In this document: positions 20,515 through 57,064 of the stretch, piece by piece
Position numbering within the stretch: the first letter of the stretch is position 1
Layout of the letters: every line of letters begins with the position of its first letter
Source of the DNA: Tricharina praecox
Lineage: Eukaryota
Reading direction: 5' to 3'
NCBI RefSeq assembly: GCF_024521635.1
Contig: NW_026250432.1
Location: 248,001 to 312,000, forward strand
Length of the DNA stretch: 64,000 bases
The notes under the pieces: model-generated
Told to the model about the DNA's origin: nothing
The model's database searches: none
Seen by the model: the letters and a program-made list of their open reading frames with translations, nothing else
Program-made: the position numbers and the translations under genes

Positions 20515-21307
20515 GAGGGTAGGGAAAGCCACATCGGGCTGCTCGATGAAAGTTGAACATTGGCATGGAAACGGGGGGTGCACGGGTAGGTATTGCCATG
20601 ATCTAGACATGTAGGTCGCATGCAATCAGTAAATAAGCAAAAAAAAGCCGAACTGTTACCTTATTGCCATGATCTACCTAGGTCGCAAGCAATTACTGAT
20701 GAAACTAAAAAAAAGCCGAACCGTAGTTTGAACCAAAAACCTTCACCACCCCCGGTGGGTGGCTTGGAAACCCCGATAGATGGACTGCTGTCCATGCTAA
20801 CTCCGCCGGGTGCGTGACCGCTAGGCCACGCGTGTTTTTTTCCGTGACAGAGGAATCGTACCGCAGCTTATAAACTGGTGGTGACGACAGCGGGCACATA
20901 CGGCCTTACTAGAATAGACTATGGCGACCACCAACTTCCCAACCTTTCCTACCAATAGAGAGAAAGCTCTACCACCATGGTCCGTTCCTGCGCTGGCGAC
21001 CGCTACCTACCAACAAATTTTACAAAGTAAAAAACATGATCACACTCATTGATTGTTGAGACCCTCCACAAAAGCAATGCCTACCCTGCCGGCGGGTACA
21101 CTTGTTCAACTCCAGAGGCGCCGCTCTCCCGGTCTCCTCTCTCGTTAGGATTTTCTTCCGCCACGTCCGTTCGTCGTTCTTAAGTATCATACGCCAGCAC
21201 AGCTCATCTGCAAACACGTGACAGGTCTGCAATGCACAATTTCTTCCTCTTTTCCTTCCCCTTCCACTCACCTTCAATCTGATCTTCTCCCACAGCGCTC
21301 TCTGTTG
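20515..21307. repeat. Long direct repeat, copy 1 (homologous to 24655-25323); has an internal ~70-bp tandem duplication at about 20591-20722
   Basis: Collinear shared blocks: GCTCGATGAAAGTTG, CACCACCCCCGGTGGGTGGCTTGGAAACCCCGATAGATGGAC, CGGGCACATACGGCCTTACTAGA, AGAGAGAAAGCTCTACCACCA, CTTCTCCCACAGCGCTCTCTGTTG. Confidence 0.9.
20707..20846 (-). ncRNA. Candidate Pol III tRNA-derived ncRNA / SINE-like unit, copy A
   Basis: Minus strand: TTTATAA (20874-20868), A box TGGCCTAGCGG (20828-20818), hairpin ATGGAC/GTCCAT, conserved GGGGTTTCCAAGCCACCC..GGGGGTGGTGAAGGTTTTT, B-box-like GGTTCAAAC, then a long T run. Confidence 0.5.
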
Positions 21308-22509
21308 CACTAGTCGTCGTCTCGCTGCTTGATCTGCTTCGCCCCCCAATTGATTTTTTCCTGTTTAATCAGTAATTGCTTGCGACCCAAGCAGATCAGG
21401 ACAATATATATCATACCCAGGCTCAACGTGACCCGATCTCCTCTCCGGGACGTTGGGGATATACACGTGCTCAACAAGGCCATCAAACACTCCACGAATC
21501 TGTTTACACCCTCCCACCCCCACCACTATAAATTTGTTTATGCCCAGTAGCTACACGTGCTCGGCAAGAGAATATAACCGTACCCAGCCGTAATGGTAGC
21601 ACGCAAGGCCGCCGGGAATAACATCTATCCGATGTGTTTCAGACTTCCCGGTAGAGGAACCGATATATAGTAGCTCATCGCCCAGCTGTTAAGCCGGGCG
21701 GGATTGACCGCAGTATCATCCTCTCTCGCCTCGGTGTGTCTCTTTAGGTTGGCTGCTGTTACAGCATCAAACTGCACACGCCTGCTCGTGGGAGGGCTTC
21801 ATATGAAAAAGTCACAAACTTGGTCGCCACCATCTCACGTTTATTGGAGCCCGAATGACTGAGTGTGATGTTAAACACGTGTCGACACCTTGGAACGTAG
21901 CGGTGTTTGCTAAAAGGCAAACTTTTGAGTCGCGGCTAGTGCGCTAGAAGCGAGTGCTTGGAATCCACCCACTTCATCTATTAAACCCTCCTTTCCTCCC
22001 AACTCTTCCTCCCTTTCTCCTCTCTCATCCATTCATTAACTTCTTCTCCTTCTTTCCCGTCCGGCACTAATTTGTGATTCATGCTACTGACTTAGATTAG
22101 TTTAATTAGTTTCCACGGTCCGATACCGACGATGGGAATACTGGCAGTAATGCTACCTCCCTTCCTTCATTCCCCCTCCCCTTCCTTCCTTCCTTCCTTC
22201 CACCTGAGCTCGAGCTCAAACCTCGAGGTAAGTCCCTCTCCCCCCACTTTTTACTTCCAGGATAATCTTACAGAGCTGTCCTGCTCAGCCGTAGCAGCGA
22301 GGAACTGAGGGATTCGTGCAACCGGTTTACAAAGTAAACTGTTGCAGTAAGAGACGGATCCAACCCTCGAGGCTGAGCAGAAAAAATCCAAGGACGGGGT
22401 TTTCTCTTCTGCTGCCGGCACAAGTTCTTTCCCCCTTCCTCCGGGGGTCCAAGTCGGTCAAGACTTGACTTGCCGACTTGCTCCCGTTAGATGGCCCCTG
22501 ACGGGGAAG

Positions 22510-22850
22510 AAAAAAATAAGAAGTATAACTTGGTTTACTATCCCCCCAAGTTATATGCGGAGGTTTTCTTCCTTTGCTGTGAGAGAGCAAAGGTCTTTCC
22601 TCCTGGCCATGTGTGTGTGAGAGACATGCATGGCCTTGGCCACCTCTCCAAAACCGGGGGACAGATGGTTTCGGACGAGCAAATAAAAAAAACCAAAGAA
22701 GTATAACTTGGGCTCCTGTCTCCCCCTAAGTTATACGCGTATAGCCTGGTTTACTACCCCCCCCTCCCCCCCGCAGGTTATACGCGGAGGTTTTCTTCCT
22801 TTTAAAGGTCTTTCCTCCGGCCATGCATGTGAGGCATGCATGGACATTGG
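22510..22850. repeat. Two diverged direct copies of a ~120-160 bp unit containing a TATAACTT..AAGTTATA inverted repeat
   Basis: AAGAAGTATAACTTGG, GCGGAGGTTTTCTTCCTTT, AAAGGTCTTTCCTCC and CATGCATGG each occur twice in the same order. Confidence 0.8.
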
Positions 22851-24654
22851 CTAAATGTTGTTGCTCTGGCCGCTGCGCGAAACAACGATATTTGACCCGC
22901 TTGTTGATTAGGCCGTAAGATCGACTGCAGCGAGTGATTATACGTGAAGTTGCGTTGCATTCTCCTCGTTAGACTGATCTCTCGTCTACCTTCCGTGTCG
23001 TGTAACGTTCCCGACAAATCCGATCATGCGCGGGAATCGAATATGAGCTGTAACACCCGCACCAATGGTGCAGTCCCCTCACAACCACCATCACCACCGG
23101 AAATCCACACATAAGCACGCAGCTCTGAGCTCTCCGCCACGCCTCCAACGTTGCGTTCGGATTTTCACTTCGTGTTCCGCCCATACTTCGAATATGCAAT
23201 CATGGTGAAACCGGCGGTCTGGCTACAGCGGCATCAGGACTTATCGCCGAACTCGATTCGGCAGCACGCTCAGACTCTGTGATGTAGTATACACATCACA
23301 TCTTTCCTTACCATCCTCACATAGCACACCGGCTCGCGCTCCTTCGAAACCTCGAAGCTTTATCCTGCACCGAACACGCAATTACCAGACGTCACGTGAC
23401 GGCACACCTCACTCACCAACAAGATGTGATCCTGCGGAACGGTGAAACAGATATGGGCACGAACTCCGTTCTCGGATGCAGCGTATAGTGGTGGCGAGTG
23501 CATGGCGGCGGAGGAGGAGTGTGGGGGCCATTGGGGTTGATATCAGCGTGGATACCGGCTTGCTCTCATCGGAATAGTTGATGATTAATTCCCCTCATCC
23601 ACTGCGGACCTGCGGTGGCAACATGATACTCGATGCATCGCCCGCCGTGTGCACCCCTCAGTCGACGCCTCGCACCAGCACTTACACAGCAGCGTTTTGC
23701 CGGCTTCTTAGCGATGACTAAAACGCAACTCGAATTCCTGCAGGCCTACAATACTATACAGTACATTCAAGAACGACTACCTACCTGGTGGAGTTGATCT
23801 CGTTTGGCGTCCGGGGGGATGGTATGAAACCTCCAACGCAAGAGTGATCATACGGTGACTGTGTGGCTGGCTCGGGAAGAGCCGCAATCCCTACGCGGAG
23901 GTCGTTGTTTGTGCACGTTACGAAGTAATCAATGGAGTTAGCGATCTCTTAGTCTGGCTGGCTGCCAGCGCGACCGAGTTTCCTCTCTGAGAATTTTAGG
24001 ATCTCTCGATCATGTCGTAGATGATGGGCATCGCGGGCTCCATGATCATCGCACCATACGCAACAAAATGAATCGACCTGTAAGTGCTCGGGCTCATTGC
24101 TTCCGAGTTTTTGAGGTATGTACAGCTACTCGATAGGAGCCACCCAAGCAACTTTCCTCGTCATCTCGTGTAGCAGCCAGAGAAGCAATAAAAAAATAGG
24201 GGATCCAGTCAGAACATCTGCAGCTGAGCGCCTAGACCCTAATTCCAAAAAGTAAGCAAACATTACCTGACCAACACATAGAGATACTCTCATCCCCAAT
24301 CGACCCGCCGTGACTCGGTGAATCGCAGAGGAATCGAAATGAGTGATGACCTGATATGTGTGTTGACCTAGTATGTTCGCAGATGATAAGGAGAAAGGAG
24401 AGAGTGGGGGAGGGGAGGGAGGGTTTTATAGGTGGGGATTCTTGAAATCGAGATTTCGCCGCTGCATGGTCGGTCACTCGGCGTCGCTAGCCCTAAGCAC
24501 TAGTGTCACAGGCGGCAACACTAGAAAACACCTAGAAGCGGGGGCTGAGGCAAGAGGGGGAGGAGGGTACTAAGGTTGAGGAGCCGGAATCACTCTCGGT
24601 ATTCCTCCCCACTCCTTCTTTCGTGACATCTCCTGTTGAAGAGGCAGGAGGCGA

Positions 24655-25323
24655 GGCGGGGTAGGGGAAGCTGCACCGGGCCGCTCGATGAAAGTTGGGT
24701 TGGATAGTGTCGTGGAAACTGGGGTGCACGGGTAGATATTGTCATGATCTAACTAGGTTGCCTGTAGTTAATGAAAAAAAAAAGCTGGGCCGTGGTCTGA
24801 ACCAAAAACCATCACCACCCCCGGTGGGTGGCTTGGAAACCCCGATAGATGGACCGCTGTCCATGCTAACTCCGCCGGGTGCGCGACAGGCCACGCGGGT
24901 TTTTCCGTGACAGAAGAATCGTTACGCAGATTACAAACTGGTGACGACGACGGGCACATACGGCCTTACTAGACTATACTATGGCAACCACCAACTTGGG
25001 CCCGACCTTTCCTGCCAGTAGAGAGAAAGCTCTACCACCACAGCCCCTCGTTGCTGCGCTGCTGCCTACTACCAACAAGTTTTACAAAGGAAAAACAAGA
25101 CCTCCACATCCTCCTCCACAGACGCAACACCTACCCTGCCGGGCACTCCTGTTCGGCTCCCCTCCTCGACCGGGCTGGCCTCTTCTATCGTGGGGATTTT
25201 CTTCCCCACGTCCGAGCAGTGCTCATCTACAAACAGGGCTGCAATGCTCCATTTGCTCTTTTTCTTTCCAGTCTCCTTTCATTTCTGGTCTCTTTGATTC
25301 TTCTCCCACAGCGCTCTCTGTTG
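24655..25323. repeat. Long direct repeat, copy 2 (homologous to 20515-21307)
   Basis: Same collinear blocks as copy 1. Confidence 0.9.
24774..24909 (-). ncRNA. Candidate Pol III tRNA-derived ncRNA / SINE-like unit, copy B (A box partly deleted)
   Basis: Nearly identical to copy A in the core; A-box region reads TGGCCTGTCG; downstream GGTTCAGACC followed by T10. Confidence 0.45.
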
Positions 25324-28300: not shown

Positions 28301-29290
28301 CAGTCCTGACAGTGGTTCGGCCCAACCCCAACCCAATCCCCAACCCCCAATCCCCAATCCTCATCGACCCGATATACCCCACGGGCTTCCTGCTGCTCTT
28401 CCGACCGTTGTCCAACGACTGTTCTCAGGCCTCGTCGCATTCCCACCCGTCGCATGTGTTGCTGTTGCTGGGGACGGCGTCAACTCGCCGACAGCATCAG
28501 CATCAGCATGTGCATGTGCAGCCTTTTAAAGGGCCTAGGAGCTGGCTATTTCCTCACAATCGGCCGCCATGGCCAGGATCGAAACTCAGGTTTAGGGTTG
28601 CTTCTTCCACCGTCCACCCCTCCAATGTCCACCCCTCAAACCCCTCCCATCCCCCCCCTCCACCACTCCACCACTCCACTGCTCTGCACCGTCCGCGCAC
28701 GGTGTCGTGTCACTATGTCAACGGGGAGCTTTCGCCCTTCTTCAGGAACCGGTCACCGCTCACGTATGGCCACTGCTCGCCGCTGGGTGGCCGTGCATGG
28801 GTGTCGTGCAAATTGATTGATTGCGTCGGTCTGTCTGTCGGTTCGGTGCGGTAGGAAAGTCACGATCCCCCGATCAGGAATGACGACAACAACGTGTGCG
28901 CTGCAGAGAGGTTTTTAACTATCGCGGATCGCTGGTTGGTGGCCGCGGTGACGCAGCGCCATGCTTCCCCCCACCACCAAAACTTGACTGGCGCGATCGA
29001 GAGTTAATACTTCTCGTCTGTCTGCCTGCCCCGTACATAGGTAGACTAGCTCCTCGTCAACCCCTCGGAAAAACCGCCAGTATCGCTGGGAAGAAGATTC
29101 ACACTTCGATCTGATCCGCCCGCCGTCTCGGAAACGTCAAAAGTCAAGGATAGCCCCCCCCTCGGTTGAATCCCTACAGCTCGAAGCCACTCCTACATAC
29201 ATACCCACCACCACCTCCACCTCCACCACCATCACCGTCGCCTAAACTTAGTTGTTGAACCCTGGATCCCACCCCCCCTAAGAATCGACA

Positions 29291-30657: not shown

Positions 30658-31842
30658 TTGTGATAATGTGTTTTTTCTTTGTGCTTCTACCTGGAGTTTT
30701 TCGTGTCTTTGCAAAGCGGGTTGCTTATTTGGGGTGTATCAAAATCCTTAGATGATTTGGTCTGGTCTGGTCGGGTCGGGTCTGTTTTTTTTCGTCTTCC
30801 TTTTTTTTCTTTCTTTCTCGGATGGGGGGCCTAACGACCGTCATGATTGATTATGAATGTGTGCGTTTGCGCCGCAGCATGTGCTTTGGCTTCTTCTGCT
30901 TCCCGTGCCTTACTTCCTTCCTTTCTTGCGTGCGTAGTTACTGCGGATAGGATGGATGGAAAAAATGAACGAGCGTTGAGTACCGTACCGTACACGATAC
31001 CTACAATACCTCCTAACTCACCTCCGGGGAAACCGAACCGCAACAGCCGCCAAAAAAAGTGCGAAAAAGCGTAAATCTGTCCCTTCAGGGAAGAATCCGA
31101 TCCCACCTGCGATCCAGATGGGTGCAATCACAGTCGTAGAGCGATCTGGGGGTTTTCCCTGCATCAACAAACGGACGGCAACGGGAAAGTCTGAGGCATC
31201 AGCTGGTTAGTAGCATAGTTAGTACCATAGTTATAGCAGTAGCGGGAAGAGATGACGGAGCTCGCAGGATGCTGGTGCACGCAGGGAGCACAGCACGCAG
31301 GGACCAACGGGAACGGGAACGGGAGCGGCCCGCTCCGCTGTCGCTGCCGAGGGTGGGGTGGAGTGTGGGGGTGGGGCGGTGGGTGTGGGAGGGGGTAAGT
31401 GTGGTAGGGGGGTGCGGGAGAGGGGGGGGGGGAGACGGGACCGATCGCATCGGAATGGACGGTGCTCTAGACTGGGTCTTTTCGGGCACGTGGCCTCGGG
31501 GGGAAGGGGCGCGAGTCATGGGGTGTGATAGGGTGATGGGGCGTGAGCGAGTCATGGGTAGTGAGTTCACGGACCTGGTTACCTGGTCACCTGGGTGGTG
31601 GGCGCACAAAGTAAGAAGTACCTATTATCTGCCTGCTTTGCACTGCTGCGGTTTCCCGTTGTACTGAGTGTTCATTCCATTTCATGTTTTGTAGATATCA
31701 TTACATATGCTGCCTTGCTTGCGTGCAGCCCAGCCCAGTTCATCCCACTCCAGCCCACTCCAGTCCACCAGCCTCGTGTCCCAGCCTCGCTTCCCCCCCC
31801 TCCCCCCAAAGACTATCTCAATCCACCACCCCCACCCCAGAC

Positions 31843-34274: not shown

Positions 34275-36358
34275 AGCCCTCCACGTTTTCCCTTTCCGTT
34301 GATGCGAAGACAAAACTAAAGTTGCCCTCGCTGTTGTTGATTAGAGTAAAAAACCCGCGAAGAAGGAAGCAGTTGTTGTCTGTGGTTGCCGTGTTAGTGT
34401 GAGAAAGTTGTAGTTAGTGGCACCTGTTGTGAAGGAGCTTGTTATTGTTGGTGAAGGTCGTAGTGTTGGGAGGAAGTTGTAGTTGTTATGTTGTAGGGAG
34501 GAAGGTGGGAGGAGAAAGGTGGAAGGAAAAAGTGGGATGTGTAGGAGTGGGAGAAGAGGAGGAGGAGGAGGGGTGAAAAGAAAGCTCCTGTCCTTTTTGT
34601 GTGAGTTAGGGCTACACCCTTATTTACTAGTGGGGTCGATGCACATCTGATAAGCCCGCTAACCACAAGATTCTGTCGTGTTAGATTGGATGGGTAGTTC
34701 GAGTGAGAAGGAGAACACTAGTTTATTTCGCGATGGGTGCGAGTGATGTGAGGATATGGCGATTACTCATCCGTTTCGCGAGCCACCCGAGTCCCGGCGC
34801 CTACCTCGCCACAACTTCGCACATGCTAATCCAGTCTAGCTGCCTCAGCCGCCATAGACCACACCAAGACGCAGGGAATTCTGGGACTGTAGTCCCGTCC
34901 CGTCCCGTCCCGTCCCGGCCAGACTTTCCAGAGGACTGATCCATTCCGTCCGGAGGATGAAATGCCCGGATACTCGACAGGTACCTATAGGTACCTGATA
35001 GCATTAGCGTGCTGTGCCGACTACTAGGTTGCGGAGTAGCGGGGTTGCTACCAACAGAATTTTCAGCCTTGAGCAGAATTCTCAGTCGTCAAACGCTCAG
35101 GGGATAGACATTGCTGGAAGTAGGAACAGGGATGGTGTGAAAGTTCTATACCGTGAGAGACACTGCGAAATAGAGCTGCACAGCCACACATCCGCACACC
35201 GGCGCCACTGTGTGGTGCCACGCCGCAGGCAGTGTACTAGTGTCCCAATCAATTCCGCGCCCTGTAGGGTATCCGTCCTCATTTCTCCAGCCCGGAAGAC
35301 TGTAGTCCTTGGTCTCCTTAGCCCGACTAACTCCGTCCCGGGCCGGGCAACCTCGAAGACGGACGGGACGGACGGTTGACAGCCCTGCTGTAACGGGATT
35401 GGCGAATTTGCGCCTCGCCGCCTCCCGAGTCCATTTTTGGTTTTTGATTATTCATTGCTCGCATGTAGTCTGACTAGGGATGTACAAATCATATGCATTA
35501 TTCTCTTACTGTCGGGAAGTACGGTAAAAACATCTGTGGAGCCCTCGGATCTACTACTACATGAGAGGACGCCCGGTCCGATCTCAGGAGATGGGGTTGT
35601 GTGCCTCTCCGTTCGTTTGTTCCGACATCACCCCCCGGACGTCACATCTGATTCGGTAGTTGATGGACAATACCTTCTCCTCGAACTACCTATATGTATC
35701 TCTCCTCGGTGACTGGTCCATCCCGTCGACGTTTCCCTAATCCCGAGGAGATTACATTCGATCTATGGCTGAGATACACGAAAGATCATTCTATGGGTTC
35801 AAGGATCGGCGTGGCTTTTTTTGAGGTAGGTTCCGGCGACGCTGTTGAAGGCCGAGTGATCGGCAGTGGAGCGCCGGGGGGGCGGCGGAGGATAGAAGAA
35901 CCTAGATGTGGATTCGACATCAAGAGCCCAAGTTGATGTGGACTCCGCACAAAGAACCTAGTTTTGTCGGTTTCTACGTTGCTTCACTGTCTACATAACA
36001 GACTGTCCCTTCCATAGTATCAAACGATATTCACACTCGCATCAACAGCGTTGTCCAGCCATAGATCAACTCTAATCAAATATATGCGGGTCCTTTAATT
36101 ATACGGTATACTTAGAGCTCTCAGCTCTCAAAATCGCCTTCAAAGATAAAATTAAGTATTTCATATCCCAGAGTATTGAGAAGACGGCAGACTACTAAGA
36201 TCAAAGAAACAAGTCCCGGAATCCAATCCTTAACCCATCGCATGTTACTCCAATATATACAAGGCAAATAAGGTATTAGTGCAGCGGCGTCAACCTTTCT
36301 CCATCGACGACCGAAACATCGGCCCCAGAGTCGATCAGCAGCTGTGCAATCCCCCGTG

Positions 36359-39300
36359 CTAGGCTAGGTGTAGCGGCGTCGACCCATCATTATCGGCGGC
36401 AGAGACGTCAGCTCCCCGATCGACCAGCAGCCTAGCCACTGCCTCGTGCCCCTGGCGCAATGCTATGTGTAGCGGCGTCGACCCATATTTATCGGCGGCA
36501 GAGACGTCAGCTCCCCGATCGACCAGCAGCCTAGCCACTGCCTCGTGCCCTCCATACGAGGCTTCGTGCAGCGGCGTCGACCCATCATTATCGGCGGCAG
36601 AGACGTCAGCTCCCCGATCGACCAGCAGCCTAGCCACTGCCTCGTGCCCCTGGCGCAATGCTATGTGTAGCGGCGTCGACCCATATTTATCGGCGGCAGA
36701 GACGTCAGCTCCCCGATCGACCAGCAGCCTAGCCACTGCCTCGTGCCCCTGGCGCAATGCTATGTGTAGCGGCGTCGACCCATATTTATCGGCGGCAGAG
36801 ACGTCAGCTCCCCGATCGACCAGCAGCCTAGCCACTGCCTCGTTCTCCTCGCGCAATGCTATGTGTAGCGGCGTCGACCCATCATTGCCGGCGGCAGAGA
36901 CGTCAGCTCCCCGATCGACCAGCAGCCTAGCCACTGCCTCGTGCCCCTGGCGCAATGCTATGTGTAGCGGCGTCGACCCATATTTATCGGCGGCAGAGAC
37001 GTCAGCTCCCCGATCGACCAGCAGCCTAGCCACTGCCTCGTGCCCTCCATACGAGGCTTCGTGCAGCGGCGTCGACCCATCATTATCGGCGGCAGAGACG
37101 TCAGCTCCCCGATCGACCAGCAGCCTAGCCACTGCCTCGTTCTCCTCGCGCAATGCTAGGTGTAGCGGCGTCGACCCATCATTATCGGCGGCAGAGACGT
37201 CAGCTCCCCGATCGACCAGCAGCCTAGCCACTGCCTCGTTCTCCTCGCGCAATGCTAGGTGTAGCGGCGTCGACCCATCATTATCGGCGGCAGAGACGTC
37301 AGCTCCCCGATCGACCAGCAGCCTAGCCACTGCCTCGTTCTCCTCGCGCAATGCTAGGTGTAGCGGCGTCGACCCATCATTATCGGCGGCAGAGACGTCA
37401 GCTCCCCGATCGACCAGCAGCCTAGCCACTGCCTCGTTCTCCTCGCGCAATGCTAGGTGTAGCGGCGTCGACCCATATTTATCGGCGGCAGAGACGTCAG
37501 CTCCCCGATCGACCAGCAGCCTAGCCACTGCCTCGTTCTCCTCGCGCAATGCTATGTGTAGCGGCGTCGACCCATCATTGCCGGCGGCAGAGACGTCAGC
37601 TCCCCGATCGACCAGCAGCCTAGCCACTGCCTCGTGCCCCTGGCGCAATGCTATGTGTAGCGGCGTCGACCCATATTTATCGGCGGCAGAGACGTCAGCT
37701 CCCCGATCGACCAGCAGCCTAGCCACTGCCTCGTGCCCTCCATACGAGGCTTCGTGCAGCGGCGTCGACCCATCATTATCGGCGGCAGAGACGTCAGCTC
37801 CCCGATCGACCAGCAGCCTAGCCACTGCCTCGTGCCCTCCATACGAGGCTTCGTGCAGCGGCGTCGACCCATAATCATCGGCGGCAGAGACGTCAGCTCC
37901 CCGATCGACCAGCAGCCGAGCAATATCCAGGTCTCCAAAACTGGATGAATTGAGAAGTAGCCTGTCTAGTTGCGCCGTCGGTACGGGGTGTGAGTTAAAT
38001 ACCGTGACCAACTTCTGTCGTAACTCAAATAAACAAACCAAAGAGCAAATATCGCTGATTCGTTCGTTTAGAGCCGCAGATCGTCGCATAAAAGTGTCGT
38101 TGCTGCGGTTTATGTGTATTAAACGAGCCTTGCGATGATAGTCGAGCCATCGCTGGTAGGTGGTTTCTGATACGAATTTACTCCAAAGGGAAGTCATGAT
38201 TAGAGAGCCTTCTGTGTCTTCGCCGCGAGAAAGGTGCCATGGCCAAAACACCGCCGAGTAATTCAGCAGATGGCCATCGCTATGAATCCCAATTGTGTCA
38301 TAATAATCCCAAGCACTCGAATTGCATAGCAGCGAGAGGCAGTCTTTTGCGATTTCGGTATGAGATTTGACCCTTTCCAGTTTGGTCTCCAAGTATTCAT
38401 CGACGGAAAGGTGAGCAAATCGGAACACGTCAAGTCGTTTGTCCAAAACGACTAGATTTTGGCAAGCTTTCAGCAAGTCGTACACTTGTACGGTGACATC
38501 GTAGGAAGATTCCCCCGAGCTACTAATTTCAACGGTAATTGCGTCAAGCAGGATTCGTGTTGGTAATGGTTCGTATGAACACTGGATCCACCGGAATGCA
38601 TTCAGTGCCAGTCGAGGATAGCTGCCCTTTTGGGTAAGAATACGCTCGTATATCTCGCTGTAGGCGTCTGCTAGGGTGTCGGGAAGGGCCCTCAGACTGC
38701 GTCGTACATCCTGTTGAGTAGCCACCTCGCAAAGAAAGGTAATCTGAAGGGCAGCTAGTTGGAACCTAGTATTTGGGCGTCAGTTCCTGCGCTTATCAAT
38801 AACCGGGCGTTGTTTTTAAACTTACATTCCTTTAGATCGCTTGCAAAGGATGTCACATATTTCGTTCTTCAACTCATCGGGTACACTGCCATGAAGCAGT
38901 TGCTTCTTTTCGACAGCGCTCCGGATGTTCGCTTTCACGAATTGGTTTATGTCACTGACATTGTCGTCGGGCTGCAGCTCAATCCTGGGGAACGTTTCGA
39001 ATTGTAGGAGGATGTCGGTGTCCATTCGGGTAGTCGCAAAAATCTTGACTACGTTCTTCGATCTTTCCACGACATTCTTTAGCGCAGTCAGTAATTTCAA
39101 CCTCATTTTGTGGTCGACCTCGTCTAACGCGTCGATGCAGATTGTCGTCTGGGGATATATATCCGTGAGTTGAATGAGGAGCTCTTGGCTTTCGATCAGG
39201 CTTAGCCGCGAAGAAATTTGCCCTTTTTTCTCTCGATCCTGGTAGATATCAACAACTGGCTTTAAGAGCTTGTCCTCTTCGGAAGTCTGAGCGAGCTGTA

Positions 39301-48300: not shown

Positions 48301-48431
48301 ATGTACGTCAACGGATGGCTTCGATCCGGCTGAGCCGAAGGAATCAGAGACAGACTCGTACCGGCACGGGAACGACAGTACACAGGTGCAGTTGTTTTTG
48401 GCGAACTTGGCTGATTAAGCAACTACCGGTA

Positions 48432-49479
48432 ACGTAGTAGAGCAGGAAATAAATCAAACCTAGGAGTGAATCAGAGAACGGCTGAATCGCCAGCCTAACC
48501 CCCTTCCATTATGTGCATAACCTCTCTTCGCCTTATCCTTCTTCAACCGTGGAGGTGGATTCTCATAGTCCTCAATCCTTGAGTCCGGGCCCGCTTCCGG
48601 CGCAATGACAAAGAACTCAGCCTTAAGAACTTCCAACACTGATGCCCCAAAGCCACCCCCCAGATTCATGGTTCTAAGAAAAATAGACTCGTGTTTCTCC
48701 GCAGCCTGTTCAGCTTCATAGATTCCACCCATCGGACCTGCAAGCATTGCATCCCCAAAGGCTTTCTTCTGTCGCTTCTCCTCTATGTGCTGGTGCTTCG
48801 GAGTGTTGGCTTCCAGCTTTTCCTCTGCCCTTCTCTTCCGTGAGTGAGCCTCTTCCAAGCTGATAACCCGAGTCCCCTTATTAGTCAACTCAGTCCGACT
48901 GCCCGGCCCTTCCCCATCGACTTTTCCTCTCTTCCAATTGACAGACCGTAAATGTCTGCTGGTTTCAATTTGCAGCGATTCCCTTGCCATTGACATTTTT
49001 CCTGACTTGACCATCTGCTGGACTCGGTCTCGCATGCCTGGCCGCAGTTCTACTCCCTGACACTCCATGAAGTCAAAGTCTTTCAACAGAGCCTCTTTTT
49101 GTTTCTTCAGCCCGATGGCATTATGGGGGGTGGTAGGAGGTGACGGCCGAGACTACCGTGGCTTTGCGGGTGGTGTTCTTGGTACCGGCTCAGCGGCGCC
49201 CTGGGGGGCCTCGACAGCGGGAATGCTCGTCGCCCGGCAGCGTGAATGCTCGGCGCCCGTCCTCGGCGCCCTGGGGGCCTCGACAGCGAAATGCGCAAAT
49301 CTCAGTTCCTATTCCATCATTGTGAGCGATCATAGCAATTAATACCGTATAGCATAGAATTCTCACCTCGACTAAATTTGGTGGTGGTGGTGGTGGTGGT
49401 ATACGAAGGGGGTTAGGCTGGCGATTCAGCCGTTCTCTGATTCACTCCTAGGTTTGATTTATTTCCTGCTCTACTTCGT
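48432..49479 (-). mobile_element. Non-autonomous Tc1/mariner-superfamily (pogo/Fot1-like) element, 1,048 bp, 75-bp TIRs, TA target duplication
   Basis: 48432-48506 is the reverse complement of 49405-49479 with one mismatch; TA at 48430-48431 and 49480-49481; TIR begins ACGTAG; the internal basic ORF (49086-48460) resembles a transposase C-terminal tail and has no DDE core. Confidence 0.88.
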
Positions 49480-51528
49480 TATCCGACTTCTTTCGTGGGC
49501 GTGCGGCCAGTACTCTATTTTATGTGGTGACTGCCTCCCACGAGGATCCTTTCGGCTGTGCTACTTACTTAAAAGTTTACTCTTATTTCTCCATAGATAA
49601 TTTCTCCGGCTCTTGGATCTGCCAGTTGCACCTACCCACTCTATATTCGGTTGTGTTTGTTACTTCCCAGATCTATGTAGGAAGTACCAATTAAGTACTT
49701 GTTACTATAGTTAGCCCCGGACGACATCTCAAGTCTGGACAGTGGATTCTGCAGGCATCAATCATCGCCAACCCAAGGTCGCCAAACCCAAGAGTCCAAG
49801 ACATTCCTTGCCCCTCTTCAGCAGCAGCAGCACCAATCCAATCGGGGGAAACGAAACGAAGGAATATGATCCTTCCGCTTCGCCAGCTTCCCGAGGAGAA
49901 CCATATCTCGATCAGGGAACTGCTCTTACCCTCCCTCTACCCTCCCCATCCCCCCACATGCGCACCATTCGGATGATATCGATCGGGTGGCGACTCGCGA
50001 GATGTGGATGTGGATGTGGATGCGTTTCGGTAACTAACTAGCCGGCATCCGGAGCTCGCAACCGCGCGTGCTCCCCTTTCTTTTTTTTTCTCTCTCTCTT
50101 TCTGTTCCACGTTGCGCGCGATCAGGGACATACATATGTACACACGCACGGCGGGCGCGATGCTTATCTCTCTCTCGCGGCGGCACGGGTGCAGGTCACC
50201 ATGGCAGATCGGGTTCCGCTTTTAGGGGGGGATCAGGACTTCGATCCGTGCTCTCGTATCTTGTTCGGGCTGAAAATAGCTGACTAGTACTACATGCTAG
50301 CAAACTACATGAATACCTAGCAGTGTGGATATTCGCGGCCCCGCAAGGTGAGCCTTGAGGACTAAATACATAATACATAGAGTACTATGTCTATACCTAG
50401 CTATGCTTTAAAGATGCCGCTACTCTTCTGAACAACTACAGGCTATATGTCGTGCGTTGCTCGGCGTCGAGATCTGGTATGTACACAGGTATATAAGAAG
50501 TATGCACTTATGTAATTCCCTGGAAGGAATAGCCTACCTACATACTTCGATACTACTACATACAGATGATAAAGGGGACGTCGCGGCCGGGCTCTCTCCT
50601 TGCATACAAACCTACTATAGTTGGGTTCCCTCCAACTGCCGTAACGTAGGTGAGCTGAGTGCCGTCGTTACAATCTACAGTAGGTAAGTACCGTAGTTAA
50701 CGGAATCTATCTTACGGCAGCATGGTAAGGATCGTGTTCACCTGCCGCTAACTCGGTTACTGGGTTCCTTTCACCAGCAAATAGAAAGGAAGAGAAACGC
50801 GAGTGATGATACGGGAAAGGCTGGATCATGTGGCTGCTGCTGACAGCTGAATTCCCCATGCGGGCGGTCCCGATTCAAAGACGGCATACCTAGTTGCCTA
50901 CCGGGTATAAGTTTGCACAACCCTTTTGTGAATCATCCATCATGCATGTCTCAGTGCGGACTGAACCCCCGGCGGGTGGTCTAAAACTAACCACCTATCC
51001 GAATCGTATGTAGGCAGAAGAAAGAAAGGAAGGAAGGGATTACTACTACTCCTATACATGCTCGCGGGTTTTCGCGAGAAATTCACCCGTCCGAATGCGT
51101 GATACGGGCTCGCAAAAGTTCCCGTTGCCTTAGCGTCAGTGCGAGCTTGAAGAGTCAAGACCGCCACGAGATATCCCCGGCTTGGTCAGTTGCAATGGCA
51201 TATGTTGACGATAGTCTGTAGCAGGACAGGAAGGAGGTTGAAGAAGCGCTGTATCTGTATCACAGTGAGCAATACGGTCTTGATGGCCTCACTACCTAGT
51301 AGCTTGTGACATTTTTCCGTCAACATCATGCGATCATCAGGGTATGCACATATGTATGTATGTAGTAGTAGTGTATGTACTTCCGCCCTCAGCTGGAGAC
51401 AGGCTTATAAGAAGCGGTACATCTCCTTGTTGAATCTCGCCATCCAGCAGCTTCTCCTCGGGACTCGGACATCAGCTTTGGGAATCACACTTCTCAGACA
51501 TATCGCCTGTCATTTACACTCTTTCGAT

Positions 51529-53578
51529 ATGCGTTCGGCAAACACTCTTCTCGGTCTCCTCTCTTTGGGACTTGCACTCATTTCGGAGCATGCTTTGGCC
51601 CATCCTCTCACGGCCACTGAGGTCGTCAGGAGAGGAGATGACGAATGGCTTAGTCCGCAATATACCCTCTTCCGTAGGTGTCCCCCCATAATCCACCACA
51701 TGAACTACTATCCTAAACATCTTCTACTACTACCAGAGGCTCCACTGGCCATCCCTTCGGTGATCAATCCATTGACTACTCACACCAACACCACCTCCGG
51801 AGAGGTCATCGATTTCTTCCAGATTTCGATTCAGGTAACCGACTGAGTTGATGTTCGACTGAAGGTTGAATCCTGGAGACTAATCCCTATTTTTGCTTGT
51901 GGCAGGATTTCACTCAGCAAGTGTATCCCAACAAGCCCGCCACCGCGCTTCAGGGATACAATGGCCAGTTCCCGGGGCCTCTCTTCCGCACCACAGTGGG
52001 ACGCCGCTCTGTAGTCCGCTTCATTAACCAGGTTGCAAATCCCGCATCGATCCAGTAAGTCCTGCCTCTTCTCCGTGTTCTCGACGCTACCAGTGGCTCT
52101 AACGCCGCCGCCTCGGTACTCCCAGTCTCCATGGATCTCCCACCAGGCCTGTCTGGGATGGTTGGGCGGAGGACCTCATCCTTACCAACCAGTACAAAGA
52201 CTACTACTACCCCAACGAGGGTGCGCGCACGCTCTGGTACCACGACCATGCCGTTCACATCACCGCTGTGAATGCCTTCAGGGGACAAGCTGGTGTCTAC
52301 ATCCTCTCGGATCCTGTGCAGGAGGCCGCATTGAATCTCCCCCAGGGGAAATACGATGTTCCGCTTGTGATCACCGACAAGATCTACAACAGCAATGCAC
52401 AGCTGATCACTCCCGAGGGAGAGGAAGACAGTATGCTCCACTATTTTCCCACAGATTCCGCATGAAAACATTGCTGACCGTTCTTTTTTCCTCCAGGCTA
52501 CTACGGCGACGTGATCCACGTCAACGGCATCCCCTGGCCGTTCCTCACCGTGGAGCCGCGCAAGTACCGCTTCCGCCTCCTGGACGCCAGCGTCAGCCGC
52601 TCCTACAAGCTCGATATCCGCCGCAGCAACGGCGCCAAGATCCCGATGGTCGTCGTCGCCACCGACAGCGGCTACATCCAGGGCCCGGTCTCGACCAACA
52701 CACTGATCTTGGCGATCGCCGAGCGCTACGAGATCATTGTCGATTTCTCCGCCTATGCGGGCCAGACCCTTACCATGCGTAACGCCCGTGACTTTTCCAG
52801 GAACGAGGACTACGCCAAGACCAACTATGTCATGCAGTTCAGAGTCGGGACTACCGTCACGAGCACCGCTGGTGAGCGCTTTGTCTCCTCTTCCACTTCC
52901 TCCTATCGATGGGACTGGATCTGATAGAATGGGACGTGTAGGAAACGGACCAATCCCGTCCACCCTTGCCACCATCAACTACCCCACCAAGACTGGTGTC
53001 GACCACGCCTTCGAATTCGAGCGCTCCAACGGCGAATGGCGGGTAAGTCCCCTTTTTTCCCCTCTCTCTCTCTCTGATCCTCGCTGACCCGCGCTCAGAT
53101 CAGCGACATCGGCTTCGCGGACGTGACCAACCGCGTGCTCGCGGCGCCAGCCAAGGGCGGCGTCGAAGTCTGGGACCTAATCAACAACTCCGGGGGGTGG
53201 GCGCACCCGATCCACATCCACCTAGTCGACTTCAAAGTCGTATCGCGGACACGGCGGGGCGTAGAGCCCTACGAGATCGGCTTCAAAGATACGGTGTTCC
53301 TCGACGAGAACGAGCAGGCGCGGGTGATCGCGCGCTTCCATCCGTGGGCGGGTGAGTACATGTTCCACTGCCACAACCTGGTGCATGAGGACCACGACAT
53401 GATGGCGGAATTCGACGTCGGCAATACCAGGGCCGCCCCTGCGTATAGAGATCGCTTCAGTAATCCTATGACGCAGGAGTTCCGTGCTAGCCCGTACACC
53501 ACCACGGATCTCACACAGGTGCAGAATACAGTCCTCCCGTTCTTTTCGGGGCTCGAGGCGTATAACTTCCCCGTTTAG
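51529..53578 (+). CDS. Secreted multicopper oxidase, bilirubin oxidase type; 7 exons (introns 51674-51736, 51835-51905, 52055-52125, 52431-52496, 52872-52941, 53043-53098)
   Basis: Signal peptide; copper-binding motifs HLHG (across an intron), WYHDH, HPIHIH, MFHCHNLVHEDHDMM; also DGWAED and VNGIPWPFLTVEPRKYRFR. Confidence 0.93.
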
Positions 53579-53669
53579 AGGAACACGGCTATAACGCGAC
53601 TTTCTTGCGTTTTTTGCTTCTCTTTTCTTTGCATTGTTGTCTGTTTTGTGCGAGGTACATAATGGCCGG

Positions 53670-53725
53670 AGTTGGGTTGGGTTGGGTTGTTCGGGTTGGG
53701 TTGGGTTGGGTTGGGTTGGGTTGGG
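53670..53725. repeat. (GTTGG)n microsatellite
   Basis: Directly visible downstream of the oxidase gene. Confidence 0.9.
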
Positions 53726-55760
53726 AAGTCCGAAGGCTGCGCTTTGAATGTGTACTAATATTTATCGGCCGCTGTACTGTACGGTACGGCACTGTTGGGG
53801 CGGTGTGACGAATCGTATTAATAGTAAAAATCGGTGGATGTTCATTGGCAGTTACTCAACCCTTCATGTCTCTACTACCTATAAGACTTTCTCAAACTAT
53901 TGGTCGTCGGCTACCTCGGTGGTACGTACTCGGAGTCATACCGGCAGGGAGAAGGAAGTGGAACTTGGTAAGTATGTACACACCGAGAGTGCCGTGTCAA
54001 CCAATCATGTTACATCATTCGTTTTAGGAAATTTGACAAGTGTTGTAATATCTGTCTAGATTAGTCATGGTAGAAGGCACGGGCCTTTACCCCTATTCCC
54101 ATATATCTACTGTTCTCACGAGGCTACAACCATACATTTCAATACTACACTGTTCACCACCATATCTTACCATATCTTACCATATCTTACTCTATATTTC
54201 CAATAAGGTTCAAATTTAATTTTTTGGCTTACTTATTCCTTCATCGATCGGGTGCGACTCCCTACCTGCCTGCCTACCGCAGCCTGCAGGTCGTACGTAA
54301 CGATATATATCGCCCCGAAAATTTCCTATTCTATCTACCACCGCCGCCGTCTCTGAAGCGGGCCAGCTCGTTGCAGGCTTGCAGCAGCCCGATCTCCCCG
54401 GAATCCGAAGTCACATCGGTGCAGAGAAGTAAAATGAAAGGGAGAGAACAAATTCCGCCACGATTTAGATTCGTGAGTCCTCATCTGGGGTGCTTCGCCG
54501 GGCCAGGTACCAAAATGGTTCAGATTATGCGCACATGATAGGTACATGAATAGCGGCTAGAAACCCCAATACAGCCTGGCAGCACCGCCTTTGAAGCGAT
54601 CACCTTGCCCATCCCCTCACTGCCCCCTCCCAGAGGCCCGAGCTCTATCCAAGCCTTTCTGCTGACGCCCAAGCCTGAAATCTCGCCCCCGACAACTCCA
54701 AGTCTCCAAGTTTCCAAGCCGGCGACCGAGTGATGGTGAGTGCACCCAGCAGCAGGGAATAGCACCCGTCAGCGACCTTCAAGAACCACGTCCCGCTGCA
54801 TGACCAGCCTGACTAGCACGTTCCCTCCGTGGGCATCGAACCGAAGCTTAATCGGCGCGCAATCGGCAGCACCCGCAGCCCGCAAGCTGCAACTTACAAG
54901 CCGCCGACCGCAACGACAATAACAGCAATTCTGTACCTTTGCTTGCATGAAATCATCTTACCAGGTACCTAGTACCTAGTACCTGGTTATCTAAATGCCG
55001 GTAAGATCCACACGCCACATGGCAAATATCGATTGATTGGGCACGTATGAAATATCACTCGCTCTGGCCTTGTCGTCCTATGAGGTCGCGGACCGCGAGC
55101 GGGAAAAAATAGTTGGACAGTTGACAGGGAAACGGCGTTTATATAGTATATTTTCGCAATCCAGATGGGCCAGACGAAATCGATGATCAAACAGAAAATA
55201 TTCCTCCTTCAGGGCATCTCCACGAGGCGGAGTGCTGTGCAGACCTGTTCTTCCCTGGCTTCAGCATCTCCACGAGGCGAAGTGATGTGCAAACCTGTTC
55301 TTTCCTGGCTTCATTTCGTTGATGCGCTCAATGTATATCTTCGGCTCTTCTGGAAAATGCTAGGGCGGTGAATAGCGGGAGCTAAGTCGCGCCGCCTGAC
55401 GAATGTCGGGTTTGGGCAGTGGCCACGCAAATGGAGCGTGTATGTTGCCACGTTCTAGCAAGCATTGAATGGTTAGACGAAAAGGCAGCTGGAGGCATTA
55501 CACCATAGAGTTTCCACCGCATGTCCAGAATATGTCGGGCGTGTATAAGGGGATAACCTTTCCATCTCACGATCCGCAGCGCGGTACTCATGTCGTCGAG
55601 ATCTACGGTATTGGATAGGTATCGCAGTTCAAACTTCAAGCTCGTATAAGATCAGGATGGCTCAGCACCTAAGCTAAACTTCGTCGTTTCTCCTGTGCAT
55701 CGCGCGTGCGGGGCACAGCACGCACCCACCACTTTATAAATTTCGACTTCATGTTTCTAG

Positions 55761-55920
55761 CACGGAAAAAACCTCGCGTGGCCTAGTGGTCTGGGCCATG
55801 CAATCGGCGAGGGGAGCTGAGGGAAAGGTTCCGGGTTCAAACCCGCTGAAAGACCTTTGTATTCAGCTCTTGGGGTTTCCAAGCAACCCCCACCGGGGGG
55901 GGCGGTGAAGGTTTTTGTTT
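55761..55920 (+). ncRNA. Candidate Pol III tRNA-derived ncRNA / SINE-like unit, copy C
   Basis: TTTATAAA 55733-55740; A box TGGCCTAGTGG 55779-55789 in a D-arm-like GCCT..GGGC; B box GGTTCAAACCC 55834-55844 in a CGGGT/ACCCG stem; conserved GGGGTTTCCAAGC domain; T5 at 55912-55916. Confidence 0.6.
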
Positions 55921-56908
55921 CTGACGTGACAGGTGGAGCACAGTATATCACTCGGTAATATCCCGTGAAACGCCATACGCTGCCGGCTGTGGAAGCAAGA
56001 ACCCATACGACGAACTTTGTCAGAGATAGGGGGGAGGAAGCGAATCTTACGGCGACGAATCCAGATCCCCTTACACAGGAGGTAAGGCAATATACAGATA
56101 GATCAAGACTAGAAGATGTGGCGGCGGGCTATGCGGTGATCTGGTAGATAAGCAGAAATGGGGATCTCTAGCTAAAGACCAGTTAGGTGCCCGAGGGCAG
56201 GGAGTGGGAAGCTGCTCTAGAGTAGAGCCCGCTCGAATAGGCAAACCGAACAAATTGCAAGTGGAGGTCAATAATCGTGTCAAAGAACTCGGTCATGCGA
56301 ACTGTATCCGGAGATGTTTTCTGCTGGTTGGTCTCGGTCATGAGAACTGTATCCAGAGGAGGAGATGTGTTCTTCTATCTATTCTCGCCGGGGGGTCTAT
56401 ATCCCACTGACAGACATATTCTGTATATATACCTAGAAGGGCACCAGCCCGGAGTAGAAGAAGAAGCAAGCAACAAAAACATCTACATATTCCTATATAT
56501 CCTCCTATCGATCTCAGTATGTATGACAAAATGGAGTTTCATAGGGGCATGGGAGGCAGTCATGTTAGTAAATGCGTACCTCTTAGGTAGTGAATACGTA
56601 TAACGTGCAAGCAATTACCTAAGAGGTAAGTACCTAGCTGCGGTGGTAGTGGTAGTGGTGGTGGTGACAAATGCACCATCATTGTCATAGGATGCTGGCA
56701 ACCGAATTTCGCAGCGCCACTGGATACGTCGCATGTGTATAAAGCAGGCGACAAGTACCGCAGCGTGTCGATAGAAGAATCGTCCAGGCACTCCTCAACT
56801 CAAATCTGACAGGCAGCTCTGCTCCGTCGTTGGTGCTCCTTTCAATCGCGTGTACGAGGCGTACGGTACGTACCCACCACTTTATGATTTTCGAATTCAT
56901 GTTTCCAG

Positions 56909-57064
56909 CACGAAAAAACCCCCGCGTAGCCTAGTGGTCTAGGCCATGCAATCGGCGAGGGGAGCTAAGGGAAAGTTCTGGGTTCAACACAGGCCAAAGA
57001 ACTTTTTATTCAGCTCTTGGGGTTTCCAAGCCACCCGCCGGGGGTGGTGTTGGTTTTTGTTTTT
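56909..57064 (+). ncRNA. Candidate Pol III tRNA-derived ncRNA / SINE-like unit, copy D
   Basis: A box TAGCCTAGTGG 56927-56937 with perfect GCCT/AGGC stem; degenerate B box GGTTCAACAC 56981-56990; conserved 3' domain; T5GT5 end. An internal T5 at 57003-57007 could terminate transcription early. Confidence 0.55.

Follow-up and report, generated by a model that had tools for sequence, protein, structure and literature searches.

The 4.5SH and 4.5SI genes are multi-copy and lineage-restricted and keep their own flanks, and the SNR6 (U6) gene of Saccharomyces cerevisiae combines an upstream TATA box and an internal A box with a B box past the terminator. On the RNA level, vault, Y and 7SK-type RNAs pair their 5' part with their 3' part, vary in the centre and end in a 3' hairpin with UUU-OH behind it, a type of site to which La and LARP7-family proteins bind; vault and Y RNAs additionally possess A and B boxes. 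Among retroposons, the 3' stem-loop of stringent SINE/LINE pairs is sequence-invariant. Few Pol III small RNAs have been described in filamentous fungi beyond tRNAs, 5S, U6, SRP and RNase P/MRP RNAs, and the Pezizomycetes, to which truffles and many mycorrhizal species belong, are a poorly studied class. In the mouse 4.5SH and 4.5SI genes, type 2 internal A and B boxes are accompanied by a TATA-like box at -31/-24 and by further elements of the 5' flank, which increase transcription (PMC7279448). Equally, target-site duplications of 4-14 bp are reported for the AfuSINE2 elements of Aspergillus fumigatus (PMC5063351), and LARP7-like Pof8-related proteins in Pezizomycetes and not in other Pezizomycotina (PMC7928011).

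The window, which is the whole stretch of 64,000 nucleotides of Tricharina praecox contig NW_026250432.1 analysed here, contains four units that share features with several of these systems. With moderate confidence the units are interpreted as uncatalogued, lineage-specific small-RNA genes of Pezizomycetes with a Pol III promoter, an RNA of tRNA-derived fold and family growth by DNA duplication. Like 4.5SH and 4.5SI, they appear lineage-specific and multi-copy and combine a TATA-like box with A and B boxes. Unlike in 4.5SH and 4.5SI, to which no sequence relation exists, the TATA-like box has the -27 position of the fungal 5S gene, the B box of one subtype lies past the first T-run, a downstream ATCACTYG motif and an invariant 3' hairpin are present, and transcription is predicted.

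Layout and promoter signals of the four units

Profile searches of the window (nhmmer) recovered exactly four copies, A to D, whether the profile was built from the whole unit or from either half, with next-best matches at E = 3.1 (whole unit), 1.1 (5' half) and 0.28 (3' half), and these profiles detected no decayed unit fragments. The four units described by the first-pass annotation, with their coordinates, blocks and block order, were confirmed in the window sequence, and the search with the 3' domain returned the same four copies. An 18-nt 3' motif is matched exactly in all four units against a chance expectation of 0.13, a count of four being reached in none of 100 shuffles; the A-box block is found in three of them, unit B being a damaged copy. 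The 5' part common to all units consists of an upstream CCAC..TTTATAA-like box, a CACG(G)A-run, CGCG and an A-box-like TGGCCTAGYGG that is partly deleted in unit B, and is followed by GCA..CGGCG, a central hairpin and GGGGTTTCCAAGC(C/A)ACCC..GGTG..GGTTTTT. Locally the units are paired, A with B (short type) and C with D (long type), as listed here together with a 5S rRNA gene used for comparison.

17879..18025, minus strand: 5S rRNA comparison gene (5S at 17998-17879) with upstream TATAAGA, first T 27 nt upstream of +1
20707..20734, minus strand: stretch behind the first T5 of unit A; B-box-like GGTTCAAAC at 20734-20726 directly behind the T5, second T-run T8 at 20714-20707
20735..20845, minus strand: unit A, short type, predicted transcript; +1 A at 20845, first T5 at 20739-20735
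20866..20872, minus strand: TATA-like box TATAAGC of unit A, first T 27 nt upstream of +1
24774..24803, minus strand: stretch behind the first T5 of unit B; B-box-like GGTTCAGAC at 24803-24795, then T10 at 24783-24774
24804..24908, minus strand: unit B, short type, with part of the A box lost; start A (+1) at 24908, first T5 at 24808-24804
55735..55741, plus strand: TATA box TATAAAT of unit C, first T at -27
55762..55916, plus strand: unit C, long type; +1 A at 55762, A-box block at 55775-55791, T5 at 55912-55916
55832-55845 and 55872-55889, plus strand: T-arm-like hairpin with the B box, and 3' motif, of unit C
55944..55955, plus strand: conserved motif TATATCACTCGG downstream of unit C, seen in alignments and in X1 paralogues (loose end behind 57065)
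56883..56889, plus strand: TATA-like box TATGATT of unit D, first T at -27
56910..57064, plus strand: unit D, long type; +1 A at 56910, A-box block at 56923-56939, 3' motif at 57019-57036
56978-56992 and 57054-57064, plus strand: T-arm-like region of unit D, and its end with T5 at 57054-57058, a G and a second T5 at 57060-57064
57073..57084, plus strand: conserved motif GATATCACTCGG downstream of unit D, then CATGTGAC and T8 at 57105-57112

A T5 closes all four units; a second T-run follows 1 nt beyond the first in D and 20-25 nt beyond it in A and B, and is missing in C, while other subtypes of the family end with T4-5 and then a second T-run. Units A and B lie in a segmental duplication that exceeds 700 bp and is decaying, with similarity that fades gradually and with indels. 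An LTR-like reading of the pairs A/B and C/D was rejected upon inspection by eye, as TG..CA ends, primer-binding tracts and polypurine tracts are missing and the A/B similarity decays gradually. A repeated element, GCTTGCGACC..AGATCA, which also forms an inverted repeat, adjoins A and B, and the inverted repeat I5 near unit A is part of a separate repeated element.

In all four units the first T of the TATA-like box is located at -27, upstream of a pyrimidine-A start. Among the 35 family members with enough upstream sequence, the box is found at -27 in 18, at -26 in three and at -29/-30 in nine, and a recognisable box is missing in five. The 5S gene, the one Pol III gene compared, has the same TATA spacing and equally starts at a pyrimidine-A. 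With the A and B boxes read by their consensus motifs, the A box starts about 19 nt after +1 within a D-arm-like hairpin, and the B box is held as GGTTC(R)A in an internal T-arm-like hairpin in the long type and lies just behind the first T-run in the short type. Internal A and B boxes are thereby seen at tRNA-like positions, with the A-box block present in three of the four window units. The ATCACTYG motif, 25-45 nt past the terminator, is conserved along with the promoter among copies and across species; a palindromic downstream motif, GTGAT(AT)CAC / CACGTGA, looks like a transcription-factor site, and TGTCACTC occurs about 55 nt beyond the terminator of the window 5S gene (one 5S gene examined). 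The proposal that the units belong to a multi-copy family and have the anatomy of Pol III-type genes is supported.

Judged from these signals, TFIIIB would be positioned, in the manner of the 5S gene of this genome, by the TATA-like box at -27, and TFIIIC by the A box in the D-arm-like hairpin together with a B box that would be offered either by the internal T-arm-like hairpin (C and D) or immediately past the first T-run (A and B). Initiation at the pyrimidine-A, which lies about 11 nt ahead of the acceptor-like strand, would correspond to tRNA-gene geometry, and termination at the T5, or at the second T-run a few bases on, would give a Pol III small RNA of about 105-160 nt.

The units are like tRNA genes in their leader of about 11 nt, the D-arm-like A box about 19 nt after +1, the B box within a T-arm-like hairpin, a 7-bp acceptor-like stem and the T-run terminator. 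Unlike tRNA genes, they are devoid of an anticodon arm, the T-arm-like hairpin stands atop a long extra stem and is absent in the short type, and a conserved hairpin of about 40 nt is found past the acceptor-like stem. The short type and the X1 paralogues, which have the same B box behind the T5 as unit A (loose end behind 57059), have a layout like that of SNR6. Unlike in SNR6, the B box directly follows the T5 and has a second T-run behind it, so that it may still be transcribed, and neither U6 sequence motifs nor an Rfam U6 match are present in the units.

The family beyond the window and its probable mode of growth

A scan of metagenomes for the 18-nt motif gave 89 loci, 57 of them with the full family context, and these 57 fungal loci comprise 38 distinct complete units of 69-162 nt and several subtypes. 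The depth of DNA run X1 is 138-415 over the units versus about 8-9 in neighbouring single-copy DNA, which suggests tens of copies in this one metagenome. Cross-species blastn similarity is confined to -33 to +17; conservation is graded, is highest at particular positions such as the TATA box and further motifs, and fades without sharp edges, and orthologous flanks were not found between the window and the metagenome loci. Units C and D align from about -80 up to about 40 nt past the T-run and have nothing in common outside this block, and copy groups of the type-1 fungus have more than 150 nt of further upstream sequence in common. Some copies are truncated at the 5' end (L001/L004, L010, L030, L063), of which L001/L004, L010 and L063 retain the 3' part; L063 and L045 have an upstream transposon end in common, and other transposon ends are close to copies. 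Tens of copies, subfamilies and some 5'-truncated copies are also expected of a mobile element.

A tRNA-derived SINE or other non-autonomous retroposon, with copies representing masters and recent insertions and the 3' hairpin read by the reverse transcriptase of a partner LINE, is the best surviving alternative and is considered unlikely. It would be in line with the tRNA-like head with A and B boxes, the tens of copies in clear subfamilies, the 5'-truncated copies L001/L004, L010 and L063, the location of paralogues inside longer RNA-derived contigs and the sequence-invariant 3' stem-loop. However, the untranscribed -27 TATA region with further upstream sequence and the motif 25-45 nt past the terminator are common to copies and species, and a retroposition that begins at +1 can copy neither of them, which counts against a SINE. 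The upstream flank said by the first-pass annotation to be common to the copies is indeed kept even between species and likewise argues against retroposition. The target-site duplications that had been looked for did not emerge, as flanking direct repeats were not longer than mismatched controls either at the SINE-type edges (+1 and T-run; n = 35) or at the edges of the whole block (-85/+60; n = 32). Furthermore, an A-rich or simple-repeat tail was found neither in the window units nor in the family loci, a LINE-like upstream context was seen by eye in none of the 89 motif matches, and the truncations are explained by other insertions, as with the transposon end upstream of L063 and L045. Like AfuSINE2, the units have a tRNA-related head, an internal Pol III promoter and dispersed copies with subfamilies. 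Unlike AfuSINE2, they have flanking repeats that do not exceed control, promoter and downstream sequences outside the transcribed part that are common to copies, and no A-rich tail, nor a LINE-like context as judged by eye. The pattern of a SINE, in which only the transcribed part is common between unrelated flanks bordered by target-site duplications, is thus not what the copies display.

Under the favoured reading of Pol III small-RNA genes, the family would have grown through duplication, at the DNA level, of a block of some 300 bp in which both the promoter and the downstream ATCACTYG element lie, and not by retroposition. It is rather improbable that the block is instead a mobile or duplicative cassette of at least about 300 bp, MITE-like or a passenger of a larger transposon, which carries a Pol III gene by chance. 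The limited extent of the C/D common block, with nothing similar outside, the longer upstream similarity within copy groups of the type-1 fungus, the repeated element with its inverted repeat adjoining A and B and the transposon ends near other copies would fit such a cassette. Against it, no terminal inverted repeats could be seen by eye where the C/D block ends in the alignments, and flanking direct repeats did not exceed control, so that the combination of both at the block ends that marks a MITE or DNA transposon was not observed and the DNA-level mobile unit offered as an alternative in the first pass is not supported. Equally, conservation is graded, with maxima at the TATA box and further motifs, instead of being uniform, A and B belong to an ordinary decaying segmental duplication, and the 13 window ORFs scanned, including the longest ORFs beside the units, have no match to transposon protein families, and neither a transposase nor a reverse transcriptase matched them. 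Should the family be a mobile element nevertheless, it would carry its external promoter along, which would also be unusual.

Known RNA classes, predicted fold and possible function

That the units are not canonical tRNAs, as initially stated, was upheld: ARAGORN predicted no tRNA in the window, the 89 loci or the 38 units even in the relaxed -ps90 mode, by which a canonical or intron-containing tRNA is ruled out, and the Rfam tRNA model had no match in the window (E<=10) or in eight loci of other subtypes (E<=1). With gathering scores applied, the 5S gene (17879-17998) is the one Rfam match of the window. At E<=10 the sense strand of every window unit is without a match, the one weak hit being an antisense SNORA52 match overlapping B (21.5 bits versus a gathering score of 71, E 0.26), and at E<=1 nothing was found on the units of eight loci of other subtypes. 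Known families, namely 5S, U6, SRP, RNase P/MRP, vault, Y, 7SK and snoRNAs, were consequently discarded as the identity of the units, as covariance models match none of them, in agreement with the earlier note as to 5S, U6, SRP and RNase P. A description of the family was not found in the open-access literature, though Repbase-type libraries and supplements of Pezizomycete genome papers could name it as a repeat.

That the units are an RNA of some known Pol III class, such as a vault RNA, a Y RNA, an SRP Alu-like or a 7SK-like RNA, which has diverged too far for the Rfam models, is as improbable as the cassette. The units are like vault, Y and 7SK RNAs in size, paired ends, variable centre and 3' hairpin with U-tail, a resemblance of design only, which for vault and Y RNAs extends to the A and B boxes, and Rfam models are weak on fast-evolving small RNAs. 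Unlike in these RNAs, neither homology nor a class-defining motif was detected in the units, Rfam gave no match on them at the thresholds above, and a high copy number with subfamilies is unusual for the vault, Y, SRP and 7SK classes in fungi.

The RNA is predicted, partly by covariation, to fold into a tRNA-derived three-way junction composed of a closing stem, a D-like hairpin and a variable central arm. The 7-bp acceptor-like closing stem (5' AAACCCC with GGGGUUU) is present in the minimum free energy folds of 31 of the 38 distinct members and the 3' hairpin in 37, which overturns the earlier statement that no acceptor arm can be folded; the closure proposed in its place, between the 5' A-run and the terminal GGUUUUU, occurs in only five of the 38 folds. 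Compared with shuffled sequences, A, C and D fold with z of about -3 and B no better than shuffles (z = -0.05); the T-arm of unit D is weak. Across 34 aligned units, 98.1% of cells pair versus 32-51% with partners slid, and four pairs are changed on both sides (47 cells), a cell count or covariation score reached in none of 500 shuffles. These changes are all located within the two promoter-bearing hairpins and separate subtypes, so that they represent few independent events and covariation is thin; within the long subtype, both-sided changes occur in none of 40 pairs. The 3' hairpin never varies and therefore contributes no structural evidence, its invariance being partly forced by the exact-match search for the 18-nt motif. 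The variable arm and the D-like hairpin keep their helices across subtypes despite different sequences. A K-turn or loop-E motif in the internal loop of the 3' hairpin was considered by eye and did not fit. A genomically encoded CCA after the acceptor-like stem (GGGGUU-U-CCA) is at odds with the A-box numbering and is treated as possibly coincidental.

Least probable, and very unlikely, is that the DNA and not the RNA is functional, as a chromatin boundary or neighbour-gene regulator bound by TFIIIC/TFIIIB with the RNA as by-product, for although conservation peaks at the TATA, A and B boxes and the palindromic GTGAT(AT)CAC / CACGTGA, and the invariant 3' block resembles a B box with one extra base, the helices kept across subtypes with different sequences and, in 31 of 38 units, the complementarity between GGGGUUU and the 5' A-run with CCCC have no rationale at the DNA level.

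Returning to small-RNA genes as the preferred reading, the closing stem, D-like hairpin and variable central arm of the RNA would be followed by the invariant 3' hairpin and a U-tail. These two most likely serve to bind a protein, be it La, a LARP-type or another one, whereas variation would be tolerated in the central arm. A more specific and tentative, on the whole doubtful, proposition is an abundant Pezizomycete-specific Pol III RNP RNA, a counterpart in design of 7SK, vault and Y RNAs, in which the 3' hairpin and U-tail dock a La/LARP7-type protein and the tRNA-like body is processed by RNase P/Z or acts as a tRNA mimic. If so, the central arm would be swappable, and the B box would have two alternative places within one family. 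As a conserved family of tRNA-derived genes, multi-copy and with a promoter of its own, the units would bring a new RNA, and probably a new RNP as well, to this class of fungi. Equally, the units provide a natural experiment in Pol III promoter design, with the B box of the same RNA core placed internally or behind the first terminator, a fixed TATA box at -27 and a conserved downstream motif.

RNA-derived contigs are neutral on the expression of the units, as assembled contigs cannot reveal starts, ends or small RNAs. Those of runs X3 and X4 over the units derive from paralogues, which show 4-14 mismatches and lie within longer contigs, X5 leaves the units without cover, and the paralogue contigs from spliced runs take in the TATA flank or extend more than 170 nt past the T-run. 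That these runs are spliced is seen elsewhere in the window, where X3, X4 and X5 each have a contig that joins 58721 to 58783 on the minus strand with GT..AG ends.

Four units in the window and a wider family

We lean towards reading four units of the window as members of a so far uncatalogued family of Pezizomycete genes for small Pol III RNAs, tRNA-derived and TATA-dependent; the rival is a mobile-element origin of the family. The units were located where the first-pass annotation had placed them, and inspection of the sequence found the blocks it had listed to be common to all four and in the same order, except that B has lost part of the A-box block, which is whole in the other three.

20707-20846, minus strand: unit A, short type
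24774-24909, minus strand: unit B, short type
55761-55920, plus strand: unit C, long type
56909-57064, plus strand: unit D, long type

Over 64 kb there are exactly four occurrences of the 18-nt core of the 3' domain (0.13 expected). Profile HMMs of the wider family, for the whole unit and for its 5' and 3' halves, each retrieve the same four copies, with next-best matches in the window at E = 3.1, 1.1 and 0.28, respectively, and since only these four are retrieved, the window holds four intact copies without decayed fragments. Locally the units are paired: A and B, 4.07 kb apart, both lie within a decaying segmental duplication of >700 bp with indels; C and D, 1.15 kb apart, have in common a block that begins about 80 nt before the start and ends just past a ATATCACTCGGTA motif, some 30-40 nt after the T-run, and their alignment holds no similarity outside this block. 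Next to units lies an MFS-transporter gene (57345-58778, Pfam), the 61-nt GT..AG intron of which (58722-58782, minus strand) is confirmed by spliced contigs of three sequencing runs. For a long ORF of the window, the best named relatives come from Wilcoxina mikolae (54% identity) and, at 44%, Pyronema omphalodes; the window is accordingly assigned to a Pezizomycete fungus.

The 18-nt motif, with one position left free, matched metagenome contigs at 89 loci, 57 with family context and 32 bare chance matches; the search forces the invariance of the motif itself, while the conservation of all other parts of the unit is not forced. A single series of related assemblies supplied almost all the listed family loci, and L057 is from another. 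Complete units could be delimited in 46 cases (38 distinct), 69 to 162 nt long.

Subtypes of the family
Type 1: close to window units C and D
Type 2: two forms, in which the D-like and central arms differ
Short type: window units A and B
L036: single variant
L045: single variant, minimal, 69 nt

As in the window, several metagenome contigs have two or three copies that point the same way, spaced by a few kb. The DNA metagenome run X1 holds the host organism at a depth of ~8-9 and has summed depths of 138, 143 and 415 over unit bins, and therefore tens of copies at ≥85% identity, to which more than one fungus may contribute.

That the units are not canonical tRNAs was borne out by ARAGORN, which reported no tRNA in the window, the 89 related loci or the 38 isolated units, relaxed threshold included. 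Equally, the proposed lack of kinship with known RNAs agrees with Rfam, which returned no sense-strand match on the units, whether in the unit regions at E≤10 or in eight loci of other subtypes at E≤1. At gathering scores, the single match in the window is the 5S rRNA gene at 17879-17998, with none on units; the sole overlap with a unit is a weak antisense match of a snoRNA model on B (21.5 bits vs a gathering score of 71). A description of the family was not found in the open-access papers searched.

Predicted promoter, terminator and fold

Pol III transcription of the units is suggested by signals in their sequence. A TATA-like box stands 5' of all four window units, its first T exactly 27 nt before the pyrimidine-A predicted as start. 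Among 35 family units with enough upstream sequence, this T is at -27 in 18, at -26 in three and at -29/-30 in nine, the latter being type 2, whose start is less certain; a recognisable box is absent from five (L008, L019/L038, L036, L045). The A-box T follows the predicted start by ~19 nt and the acceptor-like strand begins ~11-12 nt after it, distances that match tRNA-gene geometry. The long types have GGTTC(G/A)A within a T-arm-like hairpin. The short type is without an internal B box and carries GGTTCAAAC / GGTTCAGAC immediately 3' of a run of five T (T5), then T8-T10, and six X1 paralogue contigs are laid out likewise, their GGTTCGAGCC being consensus-like. The nearest analogue of the short type is the yeast U6 gene, which has its B box downstream.

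The 5S rRNA gene region of the window (17879-18025, minus strand; Rfam 101.7 bits) has TATAAGA at -27, counted from its first T to the gene's own pyrimidine-A start, a T7 terminator and, ~55 nt downstream, a TGTCACTC motif similar to the (A/G)TCACT(C/T) motif downstream of the units. Judged from this single 5S gene, the TATA and downstream-motif signals may be general for Pol III genes in the host. All window units end in T5, which a second T-run follows after 1 nt in D and after 20-25 nt in A and B, while C has none; read-through from the first to the second is possible, because the 5S gene ends in T7. The nearest design analogues of the family as a whole are the rodent 4.5SH and 4.5SI RNA genes, in which a type 2 promoter is joined by a TATA-like box (-31/-24) and by additional elements upstream (PMC7279448).

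In the RNAalifold prediction from 34 units, 5' CCCC(G) and the (U)GGGG of the 3' domain form a closing stem, and there are three hairpins: D-like, T-arm-like and 3'. The earlier interpretation, largely right on gene anatomy, had to be corrected in structural details of the closing stem: it had denied a foldable acceptor stem, yet GGGGUUU pairs with 5' AAACCCC in 31 of 38 single-sequence MFE folds, and the closure it had proposed between A-run and terminal U-run appears in only five. The 3' hairpin is formed in 37 of the 38. Standard pairs make up 98.1% of alignment cells, vs 32-51% with partners slid by 1-3 columns. Both-sided changes occur in four pairs (47 cells), and none of 500 shuffles attained this cell count or the covariation score of the alignment; as these pairs, located in the D-like and T-arm-like hairpins, distinguish type 2 from the rest, the covariation represents few events. 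Within the long subtype, both-sided changes were found in 0/40 pairs, and the 3' hairpin is uninformative because it is invariant. The central arm differs greatly in sequence among A/B, type 1 together with C/D, type 2, and L036, and folds into a hairpin in each. Against shuffles, the folds of A, C and D are ~3 sd better and that of B is no better. La and LARP7-type proteins bind sites of the 3' hairpin plus U-tail kind, and such a protein might, as a lead only, be considered as partner of the units; Pof8/LARP7-like proteins are reported for Pezizomycetes and absent from other Pezizomycotina (PMC7928011).

Duplication, mobility or retroposition

The upstream flank is shared, as had been claimed, with the untranscribed promoter kept in nearly all copies and cross-species similarity spanning -33 to +17 around the unit. 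A motif (A/G)TCACT(C/T)G, 25-45 nt past the T-run in nearly all subtypes, often lies within a palindrome (GTGATATCAC, GTGATCAC) or has CACGTGA after it. Across 13 type-1 copies, conservation climbs at about -50 and declines gradually downstream, without sharp edges. We conclude that the family probably spreads by DNA duplication of a block including its own regulatory flanks. A SINE and a mobile DNA cassette are kept as rival readings; mobility is favoured by the high copy number, the existence of subfamilies, longer flanks common to groups of type-1 copies, a small number of copies truncated at the 5' end, some of which at least were cut by other insertions, and further repeats close to units. 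Retroposition of the units is made less likely by the kept promoter and cross-species similarity, the recurrent motif beyond the T-run, the gradual decay of conservation, flanking direct repeats (around transcript or whole block) no longer than mismatched controls and the absence of an A-rich tail from the units, which are also without the target-site duplications reported for fungal tRNA-derived SINEs such as AfuSINE2. Spread by duplication of the block with its flanks is hence the reading we retain.

Contigs over the units and other repeats

None of the sequencing runs is recorded as RNA, yet three are spliced, and what covers the units in these is contigs of paralogues. A paralogue of the short type reaches depths of 16 and 49 in two runs vs 6-19 for neighbouring mRNA; the contigs take in the TATA flank or extend >170 nt beyond the T-run, so they are not products of Pol III size.

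Another repeated element, (A)ATCAGTAATTGCTTGCGACC-N5-AGATCATGGCAATA, is present at 20605-20714, 21354-21406, 24745-24765 and 20171-20191 (four window matches vs 0.28 expected). It comes after the T-runs beside A and B, is present as a tandem duplicate 3' of A, makes up the inverted repeat I5, resembles sequence after the unit in L039 and could represent either a MITE end or a binding site. A 77-nt inverted repeat pair (48430-48506 / 49405-49481, 99% complementary, 898 nt between), one arm of which matches the flank of L061, is probably a small DNA transposon. The stretch 54038-54201, with a 10-nt tandem repeat (CATATCTTAC x3), has depths of 80 and 185 in spliced runs and of 110 in the DNA metagenome vs ~8 alongside; being 72.5% identical to the L008 upstream flank, it is another dispersed repeat common to these fungi. 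Between C and D, 56289-56478 is a second high-depth variable repeat with many alternative joints (depth up to 230 in run X4, 48-98 in X1) and weak C/D-box snoRNA-like Rfam matches, SNORD38 (22 bits) and GlsR10 (17.5 bits), far below gathering. Furthermore, sixteen 99-nt tandem repeats at 36253-38037 (minus strand), in a 788-aa ORF, encode 33-residue ankyrin repeats in an unusually homogeneous array, its central 14 copies being 88-97% alike. Of two short tandem-repeat arrays, at 1223-1596 and 16244-16439, one is built of 15-nt units (GAACGRACGACTAWG-like) and the other of T-rich units of 17 nt.
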